Source of the DNA: a virus
Taxonomy: Duplodnaviria; Heunggongvirae; Uroviricota; Caudoviricetes
IMG/VR virus record: IMGVR_UViG_2713896769_000015
Direction: 5' to 3' (one strand)
Length of the DNA stretch: 17,127 nucleotides
A program made the translations under genes and the position numbers. Of this stretch, positions 2,558 to 17,127 are shown piece by piece. Positions within the stretch are counted from its first letter, which is position 1. Every line of letters starts with the position of its first letter. The notes under the pieces are model-generated. The model was given only the letters and a program-made list of their open reading frames with translations, searched no databases and was not told the origin of the DNA.

Positions 2558-5111
<2,554 letters not shown>

Positions 5112-5119
5112 CCACTACA

Positions 5120-5437
5120 GCCCTGCGTAACCATCGTGGTAATCAGGCCTGACAGTGCCGGGATCGCACTCATCGCCGGATAAATCCGGCTTTCCATCCA
5201 CGAATCCAGCTCTGAATCCGGCACCTGAGCAGGCAGGAAAACTTCAATATGCAGCTCCGCCTGCCAGGTATCGCTGTCCAGCGCTTCGCCCGTGTATTCA
5301 GCGCCGGTGAGATAAACAGCAATTGCCGGAAAATCCGCCTCATCAAAAACAGCGGGGCGACCATCAAACAGCGTCGCCCCGTGTTCATGCTGCTCGAGTG
5401 CATCCAGCACTGCAGCACGGATATCAGTATGTTTCAT
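5120..5437 (-). pseudogene. U: Tail terminator gene U (lambda gpU-like), 5' part truncated by the IS insertion
   Basis: MKHTDIRAAVLDALEQHEHGATLFDGRPAVFDEADFPAIAVYLTGAEYTGEALDSDTWQAELHIEVFLPAQVPDSELDSWMESRIYPAMSAIPALSGLITTMVTQG matches lambda gpU up to residue 106. The remaining 12 residues of track ORF 5081-5437 ([12 protein letters not shown]) are encoded by the IS right end. Confidence 0.85.
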
Positions 5438-6009
5438 CGCTTTATCACAATCCTTAGTTGTTGTTTCAACGCATAGCCCAGTTCTTTTGGCAGACGTTCT
5501 CGCCGGATACGGTTAACGTTCTCATCAAAAGCCTGCTTCAGTGGGGCCGCCATCGGAATTTTAACCACCTGAATGGGAAGACGATTACGCTTTTTCCTTC
5601 CTTTATCGTCATTGCCCTTCGCATACCGGGCTTCTGGCAAACGTTGCATAACATGCCAGCGCCCATTATTTAATCGCTGGATGAATGCCCGCTGATAACG
5701 ATGCTGACCGGCTTTAAGTATGCTGTTCGGACGATGACCAAGCATCCTGATCCCCAGCTTAATAGCAGGGAGATCACCGCGGTTAACGATAATTCTGGCA
5801 TTCGGATTTCTGACCGTCGCCCGTTTCAGTCTGGACCGTTCCTTTACCAGTTTCCGGCTCACCCTGGTCTCCCGGGCAACCTGTGATGAAGACTGATTAA
5901 TCGCCGTTGTAGCCACGCGGTTAATAGCCATTGCTGAAGCCGACGGAATGGCGTTTTTACGAACCCGGCTCAGATTTTCAATCGCCTGATCAAGCCCTTT
6001 TATCGCCAT
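5434..6009 (-). CDS. Z: Minor tail protein Z (lambda gpZ-like)
   Basis: 191 aa, MAIKGLDQAIENLSRVRKNAIPSASAMAINRVATTAINQSSSQVARETRVSRKLVKERSRLKRATV...RERLPKELGYALKQQLRIVIKR, near-collinear with lambda gpZ. Stop overlaps the U start (ATGA). Confidence 0.9.
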   Translation of the reverse strand: MAIKGLDQAIENLSRVRKNAIPSASAMAINRVATTAINQSSSQVARETRVSRKLVKERSRLKRATVRNPNARIIVNRGDLPAIKLGIRMLGHRPNSILKAGQHRYQRAFIQRLNNGRWHVMQRLPEARYAKGNDDKGRKKRNRLPIQVVKIPMAAPLKQAFDENVNRIRRERLPKELGYALKQQLRIVIKR

Positions 6010-13468: not shown

Positions 13469-13949
13469 CAAGTAAATCCGGTAATTTATCCCCTGCCCGC
13501 GCACACTGATTTGCCCCCTTAGCAATAAGGGTTTTCAGATGGTCAAGATGGCGCGGTGTTAAATCAGGAAACTGTCGCTGCATGGATAAAGGGATGGAAT
13601 CAAGCGTACTGGATAACGCCATTGCCAGCTTACTGAGGGCAAAAATACAGAACCCGGTGTCAATCAGTTTTCCTTTTGACACCTCATTTTTTAACTGCTG
13701 TGTAACAGCCTGTTCTGCTGTCAGTTCCCATCTGGCAATAAGCAATTTTTCCTCATAGTCGTCTTCGCTATCGCCATCAGGCACATCGTTTTTACTTCTT
13801 CTCAGATACGATATGTAAAAATCGCGCCAGGCATCCAGATCCAGTTGCCCTCGCTTATTCGAGACCGGGGCACCCGGTAATTTCTGCAATCTGCGAAGCT
13901 GGCGATCGGTCAGACTTAAATGCCTGGCAACTTCAGTCTGCGTAGCCAC
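13440..13949 (-). CDS. Nu1: Terminase small subunit (Nu1 / phage 21 gp1-like, N-terminal HTH)
   Basis: 169 aa, GTG start at 13947-13949 preceded by gcGAGGtgagga. N-terminal HTH-like EVARHLSLTDRQLRRLQ and a C-terminal part overlapping the start of A by 29 nt. Location immediately downstream of cos, and same size and architecture as lambda Nu1, but the sequence is clearly diverged from lambda. Confidence 0.8.
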   Translation of the reverse strand: MATQTEVARHLSLTDRQLRRLQKLPGAPVSNKRGQLDLDAWRDFYISYLRRSKNDVPDGDSEDDYEEKLLIARWELTAEQAVTQQLKNEVSKGKLIDTGFCIFALSKLAMALSSTLDSIPLSMQRQFPDLTPRHLDHLKTLIAKGANQCARAGDKLPDLLDEYIRATTE

Positions 13950-13989
13950 TCCTCACCTCGCAAAAACTCTCACCTCACAATCACAACAA

Positions 13990-14100
13990 AACCGGTCATG
14001 TCCGGTTTACATGTCTGTTTTTTGTTCATGTCCGGTTCACAGAAGACCTGTTTTTATATTTTTCATATAGTTAACTTGAAGAGAAACCGGACATGGATCC
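13990..14100. promoter_or_regulatory. cosB-like region: three copies of an 11-bp CATGTCCGGTT element (two direct, one inverted), putative terminase small-subunit binding sites
   Basis: catgtccggtt at 13997-14007 and 14027-14037; inverted copy aaccggacatg at 14086-14096. Copy 1 is embedded in the palindrome aaccgg-tcatgt-ccggtt. An AT-rich stretch lies between copies 2 and 3 (14051-14075). Geometry mirrors the R3/R2/R1 arrangement of lambdoid cosB. Confidence 0.6.
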
Positions 14101-14132
14101 CGGAAAATTTTCATAAATAGCGAAAACCCGCG

Positions 14133-14144
14133 AGGTCGCCGCCC
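14133..14144 (-). other. cosN cohesive-end sequence (GGGCGGCGACCT on the minus strand)
   Basis: Plus strand aggtcgccgccc. Reverse complement of 14100-14144 is GGGCGGCGACCTCGCGGGTTTTCGCTATTTATGAAAATTTTCCGG, which I recognise as the first 45 nt of the lambda left end. Confidence 0.85.
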
Positions 14145-14176
14145 CGTAACCTGTCGGATCGCCGGAAAGGACCCGC
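14145..14176 (-). other. cosQ-containing segment (homologue of the last ~32 bp of the lambda right end)
   Basis: cgtaacctgtcggatcgccggaaaggacccgc is the reverse complement of lambda right-end sequence ...GGGTCCTTTCCGGTGATCCGACAGGTTACG with two mismatches, from memory. Confidence 0.6.
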
Positions 14177-14343
14177 AAAATGATAATAATTATCATCTAC
14201 ATGTCACAACGTGCATCTACGCCATCAAACCACGTCAAATAATCAATTATGACGCAGGTATCGTATTAATTGATCTGCGTCAACTTAACGTAAAAACAAC
14301 TTCAGACAATACAAATCAGCGACACTGAATACGGGGCAACCTC

Positions 14344-14538
14344 ATGTCAACGAAGAACAGAACCCGCAGAACAACAACCCGCAACATCCGCTTTCCTAAC
14401 CAAATGATTGAACAAATTAACATCGCTCTTGAGCAAAAAGGGTCTGGGAATTTCTCAGCCTGGGTCATTGAAGCCTGCCGTCGGAGACTAACGTCAGAAA
14501 AGAGAGCATATACATCAATCCAAAGTGATGATGGATGA
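14344..14538 (+). CDS. ylcI: Small DUF3950-type protein (YlcI / YnfO-like), adjacent to cos
   Basis: 64 aa, MSTKNRTRRTTTRNIRFPNQMIEQINIALEQKGSGNFSAWVIEACRRRLTSEKRAY...; basic N-terminus. Sequence and position (between the lysis module and the Nu1 homologue, opposite strand) match what I recall of ylcI in DLP12 and of the equivalent lambda right-end ORF. Confidence 0.7.
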   Translation: MSTKNRTRRTTTRNIRFPNQMIEQINIALEQKGSGNFSAWVIEACRRRLTSEKRAYTSIQSDDG

Positions 14539-14725
14539 ACATCCCGGTTTCTTCCACCATCGCACCGGAAAAGCGACTATGAGGGTAACCCTGCGTCTGT
14601 CAGCACAGTAAAACCCGGTGTGCATCGTTTTTGATTATTCCCGCACACTCACGCAGAAGGAATTCCCCGTCGGGCTACGGTCATGGTTAATGCGGGAATA
14701 CGGCGACGATACAGCGCATAATGTG

Positions 14726-15274
14726 TCAGGCTTGAATACCTTTATCGAATCCCGGTAATAAAAACTGTCCCTGTCTCTCCAGACGTTCCAGCTTTGCAAG
14801 CAATTGAGGTTTTTTCGTTCTCCCCCAGCGATTGAGCAGACGGCCTGACATGCTGGCGACATCCTTCTCTTTCATGTACTCCAGCATTACGGCGTTACGT
14901 TCTGCTTCATAACTTTCGCTGTACTTACGGAGTTCTGCTGACATCCAGTTAAACGCATTGATATAGGCTTCTTTAACAGCATCGGCTTTTGCCCCGTTAA
15001 ATCCCATAACCAGCATAACGAAGCCACTAAAGTCCATGCGGTAGTAAATCTGTTTCTTGTCAAAAATACCTAAGTCATTGATTTTCTCGACGGCCCCAAA
15101 ATGGGTTGTCGAGAATTCCTCAGAACATCTCAAACATTTAATAGCCCTAATCACATGCTGATGGCGTTTACCAAATGCCCTGGCAATCTGGAAGGTGTCA
15201 GTTACCGGTTGACCTTCTGCTGCGGTAACTAACTGGCGAAAGTCGAAGTCATGATTCGCAATTAATTCATTCAT
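14726..15274 (-). CDS. rha: Phage regulatory protein Rha family (pRha domain)
   Basis: MNELIANHDFDFRQLVTAAEGQPVTDTFQIARAFGKRHQHVIRAIKCL...YYRMDFSGFVMLVMGFNGAKADAVKEAYINAFNWM... fits the pRha pattern (GKRH-[DQ]-x-V-[LI]-R, LVMGFxGxKA, FKEAYI). Start taken at ATG 15272-15274; the track ORF extends to a GTG at 15343. Confidence 0.7.
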   Translation of the reverse strand: MNELIANHDFDFRQLVTAAEGQPVTDTFQIARAFGKRHQHVIRAIKCLRCSEEFSTTHFGAVEKINDLGIFDKKQIYYRMDFSGFVMLVMGFNGAKADAVKEAYINAFNWMSAELRKYSESYEAERNAVMLEYMKEKDVASMSGRLLNRWGRTKKPQLLAKLERLERQGQFLLPGFDKGIQA

Positions 15275-15424
15275 GGCGTTGCCTGCTTCTTTGAAATGAA
15301 CCTTTGCCGCACAGGAAACCAGCCCACCGAGGCTCGCCAGCACTAACTGGTATCCTCAAAGGCCCATTCCAAAGGGTCAGGTTCGGTGTTTATTGTGCGC
15401 TGCGGTGCGCGGTGAAATACCGGT

Positions 15425-15452
15425 ACAAAAATGCCCCGCATCTGCGAGGCAT
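15425..15452 (-). terminator. Intrinsic-terminator-like hairpin 40 nt downstream of Rz
   Basis: Minus-strand RNA AUGCCUCGCA-ga-UGCGGGGCAU (9-10 bp stem, one G-U pair) followed by UUUUG. Plus-strand sequence atgccccgcatctgcgaggcat at 15431-15452. Confidence 0.5.
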
Positions 15453-15492
15453 TTTCCTGAAAGTCACTTGTTAAATTTCAGTGAAATTAAAA

Positions 15493-15930
15493 TTATTTTA
15501 AGCACTGCGTCCTGATGTATTCCTGCAGGTAGTTAACCTGCGCGGTTATCTTGTCGATTCCACCTCGGAGACGGTAATAATTGAGTTCAGCATCTGCTGT
15601 AAGTCCTGGGCTTTCTCCATCGCCCATGCTGCTGGCTCCGGTCGTTGACTTTGCACAGGTGGCGGAGACTTGCAGGCGCTTACGCCCAGCAGAAACATCA
15701 GCACGGAGACTTTCGATAGTCGCATTAGCATCAGCAAGCTCCTTTGTGTATCTGGCGTCAAGTTCTGCTACATCACGTTGCCGCTTCTGCATATCAGCGA
15801 TGATGGATGTGGCTTTATCGCGCTGCTCTTTGTAGGCGATGGCGTTATCACGGTAATGATTAACAGCCCATGACAGGCAGGCGATAATGCAGATAACCAG
15901 AGCGGAGATAATAACGGTTACCCTGCTCAT
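15493..15930 (-). CDS. Rz: Spanin, inner-membrane subunit (lambda Rz-like)
   Basis: Start [39 protein letters not shown]... matches the lambda Rz N-terminus. ATG at 15928-15930 overlaps the R stop (ATGA). Coiled-coil-rich periplasmic domain. The track ORF begins at an upstream GTG (15942). Confidence 0.85.
15546..15731 (-). CDS. Rz1: Spanin, outer-membrane lipoprotein subunit (Rz1-like), embedded in the +1 frame of Rz
   Basis: [20 protein letters not shown]|[16 protein letters not shown]...: signal peptide with lipobox-like VSAC followed by a proline-rich mature region, the Rz1 hallmark. Entirely inside Rz in a different frame. Start codon choice is uncertain. Confidence 0.6.
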
Positions 15931-16424
15931 TGTTGCCCCCACAAACAGACTTCACGCTCAATCTCGCGGCGAGTCATCAGCCCTTTCCATTGCTTACCGC
16001 CAGCGTATGTCCAGCGCCGTAGCTGATCACATGCGCCTTTGATATCGCCCTGGTTTATTTTGCGAAGAAGCGTCGATGTTCTGAAATTGCCAGCGCCCAC
16101 GTTGTAAACGAACGAGTAAAGAGCGCCGCGCGTTGTTTCCGGTATATCGACGTTGATGTACGGGTTAATTTGTCTGGCGACCGTGGCAAGGTCTTTATTC
16201 AGGAGGGCTTTGCATTCTGCTTCGGTATACGTTTTACCGGGCATGATGTCTTTTCCGGTGTGTCCGTGACATACAGTCCATACGCCAACGATATCTTTGT
16301 ATGGTATGTAGCTGACACCTTCCAGACCATCGTTACCACCTGGACCAGTGATGAGCACAGACGCTATGGCAACAGCCCCACCACCAATAGCAGCTGCAAC
16401 AGCCTTGCGTAATGACGGCGACAT
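15927..16424 (-). CDS. R: SAR endolysin (phage 21 R21-like lysozyme, GH24)
   Basis: 165 aa, [59 protein letters not shown]...: Gly/Ala-rich N-terminal signal-anchor-release segment followed by the E-x8-D-x5-T catalytic motif of T4-type lysozymes. Closely matches phage 21 R as I recall it. Confidence 0.9.
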
Positions 16425-16630
16425 TATTCACCTCTCGCAGCCTTACGCTTATCTTCTTTAATCTTGAAATAAAGATTTGTCAGATACGTCAGCAGGCCAA
16501 ACAGCAGACTTCCCAGCACACCTATTGCCACCCACTGGGACGGAGAGACTTTGTCCAGCAGCTGCAGTAACCAGTATCCCGTCCCCACCGCTGACGTGGT
16601 GTATGACACACCTGTTGTGATTTTTTCCAT
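16424..16630 (-). CDS. S: Class II holin / pinholin (phage 21 S21-like)
   Basis: 68 aa, [68 protein letters not shown]: two transmembrane segments and a basic C-terminus, near-collinear with S21. SD ggaga about 9 nt upstream. Stop overlaps the R start. Confidence 0.85.
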
Positions 16631-16670
16631 CTGATGTATGTCTCCGTCACCGCCGACAGAAAATGAAAGT

Positions 16671-16711
16671 AAAGAAAAACAAAAAAGCCGCCAGTGTCAC
16701 CCACTGACGGC
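16671..16711 (-). terminator. Strong intrinsic terminator about 40 nt upstream of S (tR'-like)
   Basis: Minus-strand RNA GCCGUCAGUG-ggugA-CACUGGCGGC (10-bp stem, one G-U) followed by UUUUUUGUUUUUCUUU. Plus-strand hairpin at 16687-16711 with a-tract at 16671-16686. Confidence 0.6.
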
Positions 16712-16788
16712 CAACGCCGGGAGCCGTGATTATGGCATTCAGGCTCTGCTAAAAATGCCAGATAACATTCCGGCCTCCCCTGATTCAG

Positions 16789-16815
16789 GTTATAAATGAC
16801 ACAATATCTTGACAA
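16789..16815 (-). promoter_or_regulatory. Candidate sigma-70 promoter on the minus strand (possible late promoter pR' analogue)
   Basis: Minus strand TTGTCA - 15 nt - TATAAC. Spacer is at the short limit and the -10 lacks the final T. It would give a roughly 100-nt RNA ending at the 16671-16711 terminator. Confidence 0.3.
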
Positions 16816-16885
16816 CATCCGTCACTGTCTGTCAGAAAATGTACTGCCATATAGAAGCAACATGTGAAGTACATCTATCCTTTTG

Positions 16886-16928
16886 AGCCAGCACCTCTCC
16901 ACCGAAAGTCAGTGCTGGCTGTTTTTTT
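16886..16928 (+). terminator. Plus-strand hairpin plus T-tract (intrinsic-terminator-like), module 1
   Basis: agccagcac (16886-16894) pairs with gtgctggct (16912-16920) around a 17-nt loop, followed by gttttttt (16921-16928). The reverse complement has no T-run, so this is plus-strand specific. Confidence 0.55.
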
Positions 16929-17035
16929 CCTTAATAAGGCATCTGTAACTGAAACAATCCGCATATTGATAATATATTGACAGGCATCATTGCTGTCTGT
17001 GAAAAATAAGTCTCTACAAACATATAAGGCCTTTT

Positions 17036-17077
17036 AGCCAGCGTCTTCTTTTTCAGGTCAGTCGCTGGCTTTTTTTA
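17036..17077 (+). terminator. Plus-strand hairpin plus T-tract (intrinsic-terminator-like), module 2
   Basis: agccagcg (17036-17043) pairs with cgctggct (17063-17070) around a 19-nt loop, followed by ttttttt (17071-17077). Diverged paralogue of the 16886-16928 element. Confidence 0.55.
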
Positions 17078-17127
17078 TTATGCTGCCGGTGCATTTATCT
17101 CCAGCATCAGACTTTCTATCTCAACGC

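Follow-up and report, generated by a model that had tools for sequence, protein, structure and literature searches.

Lambdoid phages commonly place an intrinsic terminator upstream of their lysis genes as part of a pR'-qut-tR' unit, examples being the units of lambda (6S RNA), phage 82, phage 21 and the Stx phages (StxS). In lambda pR' directly follows Q, and the expert annotation of phages 21 and phi80 likewise puts pR', the Q-binding element and tR' directly after Q. Downstream of the phage 82 pR' an extended -10-like pause element precedes a discriminator at +15-17, and the pause is at +25 (PMC5001585), and the antitermination properties of the lambda, 82 and 21 Q proteins are established (PMC5001585, PMC7547250). 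An intrinsic terminator inside a Q-antiterminated operon is thus a textbook kind of element. Closer to the holin gene, the phage 434 record (OL657226.1) labels positions 45673-45709 'terminator', 44 nt before a class II holin gene and with neither function nor experiment attached, and that of phi80 (NC_021190) has a 'putative rightward transcription terminator' at 42362-42385, second to tR' and ~40 nt before a P21-family holin gene. From the opposite strand of the same intergenic region comes PasA (EcOnc51/52 in EHEC), an Hfq-dependent sRNA validated by northern blotting in EPEC E2348/69 (PMC8550237).

The 434 label, the annotated phi80 counterpart and PasA were therefore all known beforehand. 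A full-text literature search for a pre-holin terminator yielded no specific account, and as far as we have found the pre-holin terminator is annotated in single genomes but undiscussed as a feature of the cassette. An earlier note on the DNA analysed here had read the element just upstream of the holin gene as a late promoter with a tR'-like terminator. We correct that label, and find that the pre-holin terminator is conserved and covarying in P21-type lysis cassettes.

The whole stretch of DNA analysed (the window) is 17,127 nucleotides of a tailed-phage record, IMG/VR IMGVR_UViG_2713896769_000015. Its late operon is on the minus strand and, read from the window end, runs from the 3' end of an esterase gene through a 447-nt spacer to the holin gene S, a SAR endolysin gene (R), Rz/Rz1, a Rha-family gene and the terminase genes (Table 1). 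The esterase is a late-region moron; the window ends inside its gene, and the full-length gene in the E. coli DEC9B locus (L002), which we used for coordinates beyond the window end, matches Pfam PF03629. Positions 45257-45984 of phage 434 (OL657226.1) are 100% identical to 16400-17127 of the window, three E. coli chromosomes are 100% identical to 13900-17127, and prophage PP2 of EPEC E2348/69 (NC_011601) is identical to 15098-17127 and diverges from 15097 downwards. Over 16400-17127 or more the DEC9B locus, too, is 100% identical to the window. The prophage differs from 434 downstream of Rz, where it has the Rha gene, and it appears to be cut by IS elements.

Two observations concern the left part of the window. 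The late operon halts after the gpZ minor tail gene (PF06763) and is followed by two transposase ORFs of opposite orientation; the region concerned spans 3045-5111 (plus strand), with 5437-6009 (minus strand). It therefore appears that IS elements have truncated the prophage in this source, and that it has probably lost tail production. Outside the phage late-gene DNA, at 2707-2829 (plus strand), is a full-length Rfam match to the Hfq-binding sRNA isrC (150.4 bits, E = 3e-37). Across 16400-17127 Rfam gave no match at gathering thresholds, and up to E = 10 returned only chance-level hits to eukaryotic snoRNA and snRNA families.

Table 1 Features of the late region and its surroundings. Positions are those of the window unless marked L002 (E. 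coli DEC9B locus) or NC_011601 (EPEC E2348/69)
Feature	Position	Strand	Remarks
Transposase ORF, HTH_38 and rve domains	3045-4196	+	
Transposase ORF, rve/rve_3	4365-5111	+	
S, P21-type class II holin (pinholin), 68 aa	16424-16630	-	Pfam PF04971, 112.1 bits
S start codon ATG; Shine-Dalgarno GGAG	16630; 16645-16642	-	
Intrinsic terminator directly 5' of S	16675-16712	-	stem-loop and T tract; 'terminator' in the phage 434 record; hairpin -20.0 kcal/mol
Weak second hairpin, GCCGGAATGTTATCTGGC then ATTTTT	16757-16774	-	~45 nt upstream of the main terminator
Candidate promoter: TTGTCA 16815-16810, 15-nt spacer, TATAAC 16794-16789	16789-16815	-	hexamers present, promoter function unsupported
PasA promoter: TTGACA 16809-16814, 17-nt spacer, -10-like TCAGAA 16832-16837	16809-16837	+	probable
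PasA sRNA, 85-nt major form, antisense to the late operon	16844-16928	+	PMC8550237 Table S6, exact identity to E2348/69
Module 2, second PasA/PasC-like promoter-plus-terminator unit	16977-17079	+	TTGACA 16977-16982
SASA-family sialate O-acetylesterase gene, 3' end (last 16 codons)	17078-17127	-	stop codon 17080-17078
PasD2 terminator, GGCTGCGCATTGCGCAGCC then T8	L002 7087-7105 = NC_011601 ~741310-741328		outside the window; PasD terminator hairpin -14.7 kcal/mol
tR'-position hairpin, AAACCCGCTGCCGAGTGGGTTT then T8	L002 5775-5796		after the TGGTATGTT element; tR' hairpin -12.0 kcal/mol
Q antiterminator gene, 82-type	L002 5040-5729		Pfam PF06323, 306.8 bits

As judged from its sequence, the hairpin before S is a strong sense-strand Rho-independent (intrinsic) terminator. 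On the minus strand GGCCGTCAGTG-GGTGA-CACTGGCGGCT at 16712-16686 forms 11 pairs, 7 of them G-C, closed by a 5-nt loop; the stem is followed by T6-G-T5 down to 16675, and 44 nt separate the last T from the S start codon. The 71-nt segment folds with -23.3 kcal/mol (z = -2.96, 2 of 200 shuffles as good), the hairpin alone accounting for about -20 kcal/mol. It thus has both hallmarks of a Rho-independent terminator, a G+C-rich stem-loop and an adjacent U tract, and the structure is kept in evolution. The minus-strand terminator that had been placed at 16671-16711 is therefore real and its coordinates were right to within a few bases.

The weak second hairpin further upstream has ~ -7.5 kcal/mol and is also present in H-19B and E. 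albertii. An attenuator or antiterminator fold upstream of the main hairpin was considered and rejected, the rival helix being weak (3 bp) and the upstream sequence unconserved between cassette types. On the other side, by inspection, a small hairpin CTGTC-GGCGGT-GACGG at 16667-16642 (minus strand) overlaps the Shine-Dalgarno region of S; other cassette types have CTTCCG-GATAA-CGGGAG at the corresponding position. Judged by eye, the arrangement recalls the structures that control translation of lambda S.

Close relatives of the window's holin are encoded at 80 IMG/VR loci, 78 of which have enough upstream sequence, giving 39 distinct upstream sequences. The hairpin is in the same place in all 39; strict terminator criteria recognise it in 34, with the stem ending 47-57 nt before the ATG. 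Upstream of the hairpin the 78 loci show unrelated classes of sequence, often the tail of some other ORF; from the hairpin through the leader to S they can be aligned. RNAalifold of 22 distinct sequences gives an 11-bp consensus hairpin in which 94.2% of cells are paired, compared with 28-65% when the 3' partners are slid. Five of the 11 pairs show changes on both sides, and the covariation score is 0.406 against 0.300 in shuffles, with none of 500 shuffles reaching 0.406. The remaining five of the 39 variants (L015, L049, L069, L076, L078) keep the stem, here GGGGCTGTCGG-TGTGAG-CTGATGCCCC at ~50 nt before S, but their run of T is broken (CCTCCTGTTGTTGT or CCACTTGTTGTTGT). These may be leaky terminators, or the stem may have a second role beyond termination.

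A wider survey took one genome per species and covered 70 distinct loci with P21-type holin genes (L087-L166). A strict terminator is found 49-127 nt upstream of the holin gene in 36 of the 70, against a background of 0.086 strict terminators per 125 nt on either strand (binomial 8e-21); strict criteria were used throughout, a looser scan giving 0.48 hits per 120 nt of background. Across species the terminators favour two spacings from the start codon, 49-63 nt and 115-127 nt. Loci of the second class have a common TTTTTATTTCAGG tail and often a second hairpin at ~80 nt, and so may have a conserved leader of another kind. By the strict criteria about half of the loci in this survey have no terminator, and the element is therefore common but not obligatory. 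Since the hairpin tracks S under changing upstream genes, we regard it as a conserved left-edge part of the P21-type lysis cassette and not as tR'.

The hairpin before S in H-19B is identical to that of the window, and the Stx1 phages that carry the same esterase-spacer-S module are 94.6-98.8% identical to it. The phi80 holin is 52% identical to the window's S and the phi80 hairpin, AAGGCTGCCG-TTCG-CGGCGGCCTT, is of unrelated sequence; its tR' lies only ~260 bp from S, without the moron region or antisense sRNA found in the window's prophage. The cdtI phage has at the same position a terminator of unrelated sequence, GGTGGCCAC-GTAG-GTGGCC then T5, and phage 21 has an unannotated long hairpin between its tRNA genes and S21 (-25.5 kcal/mol, z = -5.3) followed by CTTCTTTTTTT. 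No comparable terminator was found before S of lambda, but the same scans also missed lambda tR' and this negative is therefore weak and allows no conclusion. The text of the StxS/Term-seq paper reports no 3' ends near S (PMC7547250).

We then have to ask where the late control unit of this prophage lies. In all of the records examined (434, DEC9B and E2348/69) the layout beyond the window end is lpxR, ylcG, Q, a 744-bp membrane-protein gene, a DUF3927 gene, the PasD sRNA, the 1851-bp esterase gene, the spacer and S; three membrane-protein genes, the PasD sRNA and the 1.85-kb esterase gene separate the Q-adjacent unit from S. The Q gene shares 92% identity with phage 82 Q at the 3' end, and the distance from the end of Q to the start of S is 3768 bp in DEC9B (L002 5729 and 9498) and ~3.8 kb in 434 and E2348/69. 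A promoter-like sequence, TTGCAA-17-TATACT, overlaps the Q stop codon, and TGGTATGTT at about +6 to +14 from its predicted start is an extended -10-like, pause-like element with a hairpin in the tR' position behind it (Table 1). These features agree with the published description of the phage 82 pR' (PMC5001585); the agreement is one of features and not of alignment, the 82 record (X92588) ending at the Q stop codon.

Given that the Q stop codon is 3768 bp 5' of S, the true pR' and tR' are to be placed ~3.7 kb from S on that side, or ~3.2 kb past the end of the window. The unit that had been placed just upstream of the holin gene is thus found beside the 82-type Q, upstream of position 17127, as judged from annotation and sequence features rather than experiment, and what had looked like a tR' unusually close to S is a separate terminator, that of the holin cassette, in its normal place. 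The expectation of a Q gene beyond the window end was correct, an 82-type Q being present in the identical records, and it follows as the most reasonable inference that S, R and Rz depend on Q-modified polymerase. Compared with the lambdoid pR'-qut-tR' units, the element before S is not adjacent to Q, and has no credible (let alone strong) sigma-70 promoter and no credible Q-binding or sigma-dependent pause element.

The same region encodes PasD2, an abundant sense-strand sRNA of 172 nt (baseMean 11017) that ends just 5' of the esterase gene, within the late operon. From its position and level it is thus a strongly expressed sRNA gene of the lysogen phase, in the sense direction and inside the late operon.

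The promoter proposed to serve the terminator before S, a weak TTGTCA-15-TATAAC, is present as hexamers but does not stand out as a promoter above chance. Sites matching 5/6 and 5/6 positions with a 15-19 nt spacer number 6 in the window against 2.4 +/- 1.6 in dinucleotide shuffles, and a consensus promoter scan did not call this one. Its -10 hexamer lacks the final T, and 15 nt is the least favourable spacer length. By inspection, 16788-16757 contains no -10-like pause hexamer, that is, none with A at position 2 and T at position 6 that matches TATAAT at at least 4 positions. Most likely this is not a promoter. Sense-strand reads in published RIL-seq data begin at 16849-16831, further upstream than the predicted start of the candidate.

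It was also pointed out that the candidate -35 shares its base pairs with a plus-strand TTGACA, and this is so, the two hexamers overlapping by 5 bp. The plus-strand hexamer is the better supported of the two. Together with its -10-like partner it predicts a start at 16844, 7 nt after the -10-like hexamer, and this is the published 5' end of PasA: 743499 and 743415, the ends published for PasA, correspond to 16844 and 16928 of the window. [quoted passage not shown] The PasA northern probe, GCCAGCACTGACTTTCGGTGGAGAG, matches the window minus strand; PasA has its own terminator hairpin and U7 at 16886-16928, and a minor form of 236 nt ends at 17079. In the Sp12 prophage of EHEC Sakai EcOnc51 occupies the same place in an almost identical spacer.

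The spacer in fact carries two plus-strand promoter-and-terminator units. The terminator of the second (module 2), AGCCAGCG...CGCTGGCT followed by T7, abuts the esterase stop codon, and it is there that the minor form of PasA ends; the PasC northern probe has only its first 12 nt in common with module 2. A block AATATnTTGACA...CTGTCTGT of the PasA promoter region is repeated in module 2, and TATAAC lies outside this block; the common -35 base pairs are therefore better explained by the PasA promoter. HnrS, a 66-nt EHEC prophage sRNA, was considered as a product of the terminator before S and discarded, its Sakai locus having no match in the window.

The sRNA PasB is encoded by another prophage (PP6), and its seed has two complementary sites on the sense strand of the spacer: GACAGACAG at 16833-16825 and a shorter one, ACAGACAG, at ~16998-16991. 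The PasB seed, UUGUCUGUC, is single-stranded and lies just before the PasB terminator. RIL-seq chimeras between PasB and the spacer map to the first site, whose bases are those of the conserved CTGTCTGT of both plus-strand promoter regions. In the comparison of PasB with the spacer, the 9-bp seed match at the chimera site is the only noteworthy feature.

Three compact terminators are found on the sense strand between Q and S, and the one before S is the strongest (Table 1). In RNA-seq of uninduced E2348/69 the baseMean values are 226 for the membrane-protein gene E2348C_0686, 11017 for pasD2, 102 for the esterase gene and 3879 for pasA, and fall to 3.5 for S, 3.2 for R and 1.0 for Rz (PMC8550237 Table S2). 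Adjusted for length, and at very low counts, the drop relative to the esterase is ~3-fold for S, 8-fold for R and 24-fold for Rz; the modest size of the drop and the low counts make these data supportive and not decisive. When the data of PMC8550237 are mapped to the window, RIL-seq sense-strand fragments from the lysogen begin at 16849-16831, and Q-independent sense transcription therefore enters the esterase-holin spacer.

Taken as a whole, the evidence makes it probable that the pre-S hairpin is a strong Rho-independent terminator, that it belongs to the lysis cassette's left edge, and that it is a second barrier, distinct from tR', which insulates S, R and Rz. In this reading the control unit ~3.7 kb upstream is made up of the 82-type Q gene, tR' and, between them, a constitutive pR' that has a sigma-dependent pause element. 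The moron region between tR' and S (membrane-protein genes, PasD and esterase) is transcribed in lysogens. Polymerase that leaks through tR', or that starts within the moron region, would not be Q-modified and so would stop before S, leaving the lethal holin and endolysin genes silent in the lysogen. After induction Q would load at pR' and make polymerase resistant to termination, and such polymerase would pass tR', the PasD terminator and the terminator before S to reach the lysis and head genes. The terminator before S is on the sense strand between pR' and the late genes of a Q-encoding phage; by analogy with the lambda, 82 and 21 Q proteins (PMC5001585, PMC7547250) we infer that Q overrides it.

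Another possibility is that the terminator simply forms the 3' end of a functional sense RNA, either the ~400-nt 3' UTR of the esterase mRNA or a processed form of it, that acts as a target or sponge in the Hfq network. Such an RNA would be fully complementary to PasA and would contain both sites for the PasB seed; its U-rich 3' end would suit Hfq binding. RIL-seq joins the sense fragments at 16849-16831 to PasB (19 chimeras in the interaction table; 19 and 798 chimeric fragments in two conditions in the per-RNA table), by inspection UUGUCUGUC of PasB can pair with GACAGACAG at 16833-16825, and PasA also forms chimeras with the esterase 3' end. However, the sense RNA is RNA1 in nearly all of its chimeras, with RNA2 fractions of 0 and 0.03, so that it behaves like a target rather than like a terminator-bound Hfq sRNA, and the whole-sequence RNAduplex energy with PasB is equalled by 61% of shuffles. 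It would also leave unexplained the terminator at the same place in unrelated cassettes that have no PasA. A sense RNA of this kind is compatible with insulation and does not compete with it exclusively, and as the explanation of the terminator we consider it unlikely. An extension of the idea, which we regard as rather improbable, would make the esterase-holin spacer an RNA control hub, whose sense RNA pairs with PasA and PasB via Hfq and tunes esterase mRNA, the availability of PasA or the polymerase reaching the holin gene; if true, it would link the leakiness of prophage lysis to the host sRNA network and to other resident prophages.

The hairpin could also be the plain terminator of the esterase moron unit, with no special relation to the holin. 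Morons typically consist of a gene with its own terminator, the esterase gene does lie between the PasD terminator and the hairpin before S, and in many Stx2-type and cdtI cassettes the hairpin comes 3-20 nt after the stop codon of the upstream ORF. Here, though, it comes ~370 nt after the esterase stop codon, beyond two antisense sRNA units, and the hairpin and leader to S stay homologous while the upstream gene changes. Its distance to S is clustered, both among the IMG/VR loci (47-57 nt) and in the two modes seen across species (49-63 and 115-127 nt), and in phage 21 a terminator of this kind follows tRNA genes, which have no need of one. We therefore think a plain moron terminator distinctly unlikely.

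That the hairpin acts instead at the RNA level on the late mRNA, in processing, stability or the timing of S translation, with the T tract incidental, is very improbable. The 5 of 39 variants with a stem and a degraded T tract would suit such a role, as would the second small conserved hairpin over the Shine-Dalgarno region, in which one pair changes from G-C to A-U. Against this, T tracts are present in the other 34 viral variants and in the unrelated hairpins of phi80, cdtI and phage 21, and no alternative pairing between the terminator and the Shine-Dalgarno region of S was found.

Finally, the reading of TTGTCA-15-TATAAC as pR' and of the hairpin as tR', with a constitutive ~100-nt RNA and Q acting here, has in its favour a good terminator upstream of the first lysis gene and a 10/12 hexamer match ~100 nt upstream of the hairpin, but it can practically be dismissed, given a Q gene 3.8 kb off that is immediately followed by a promoter, pause element and terminator of its own (the arrangement of lambda, 21, 82 and phi80), four same-direction genes and an sRNA between that unit and S, a candidate of chance frequency with a 15-nt spacer and no T at -7 that the scan did not call, the lack on inspection of a -10-like pause hexamer in the first 25 nt after its predicted start, and the same hairpin in cassettes whose different upstream sequence has no such hexamers.

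With the hairpin taken as an insulating terminator of the lysis cassette, late control in this prophage family sits beside Q and far from S. The silence of the holin gene in lysogens would then rest on Q repression and, in addition, on three successive terminators (tR', that of PasD and that before S). These would stand between the lethal lysis genes and the active moron genes and, in related phages, also the iron-regulated stx1 promoter. In Stx1 phages with this module the Fur-regulated stx1 promoter upstream reportedly gives toxin without lysis (PMC7547250), which is the situation that such a barrier would serve. A small point of wider scope is that, across Enterobacterales, P21-type holin genes have a conserved terminator a short, fixed distance upstream, with compensatory changes in it.
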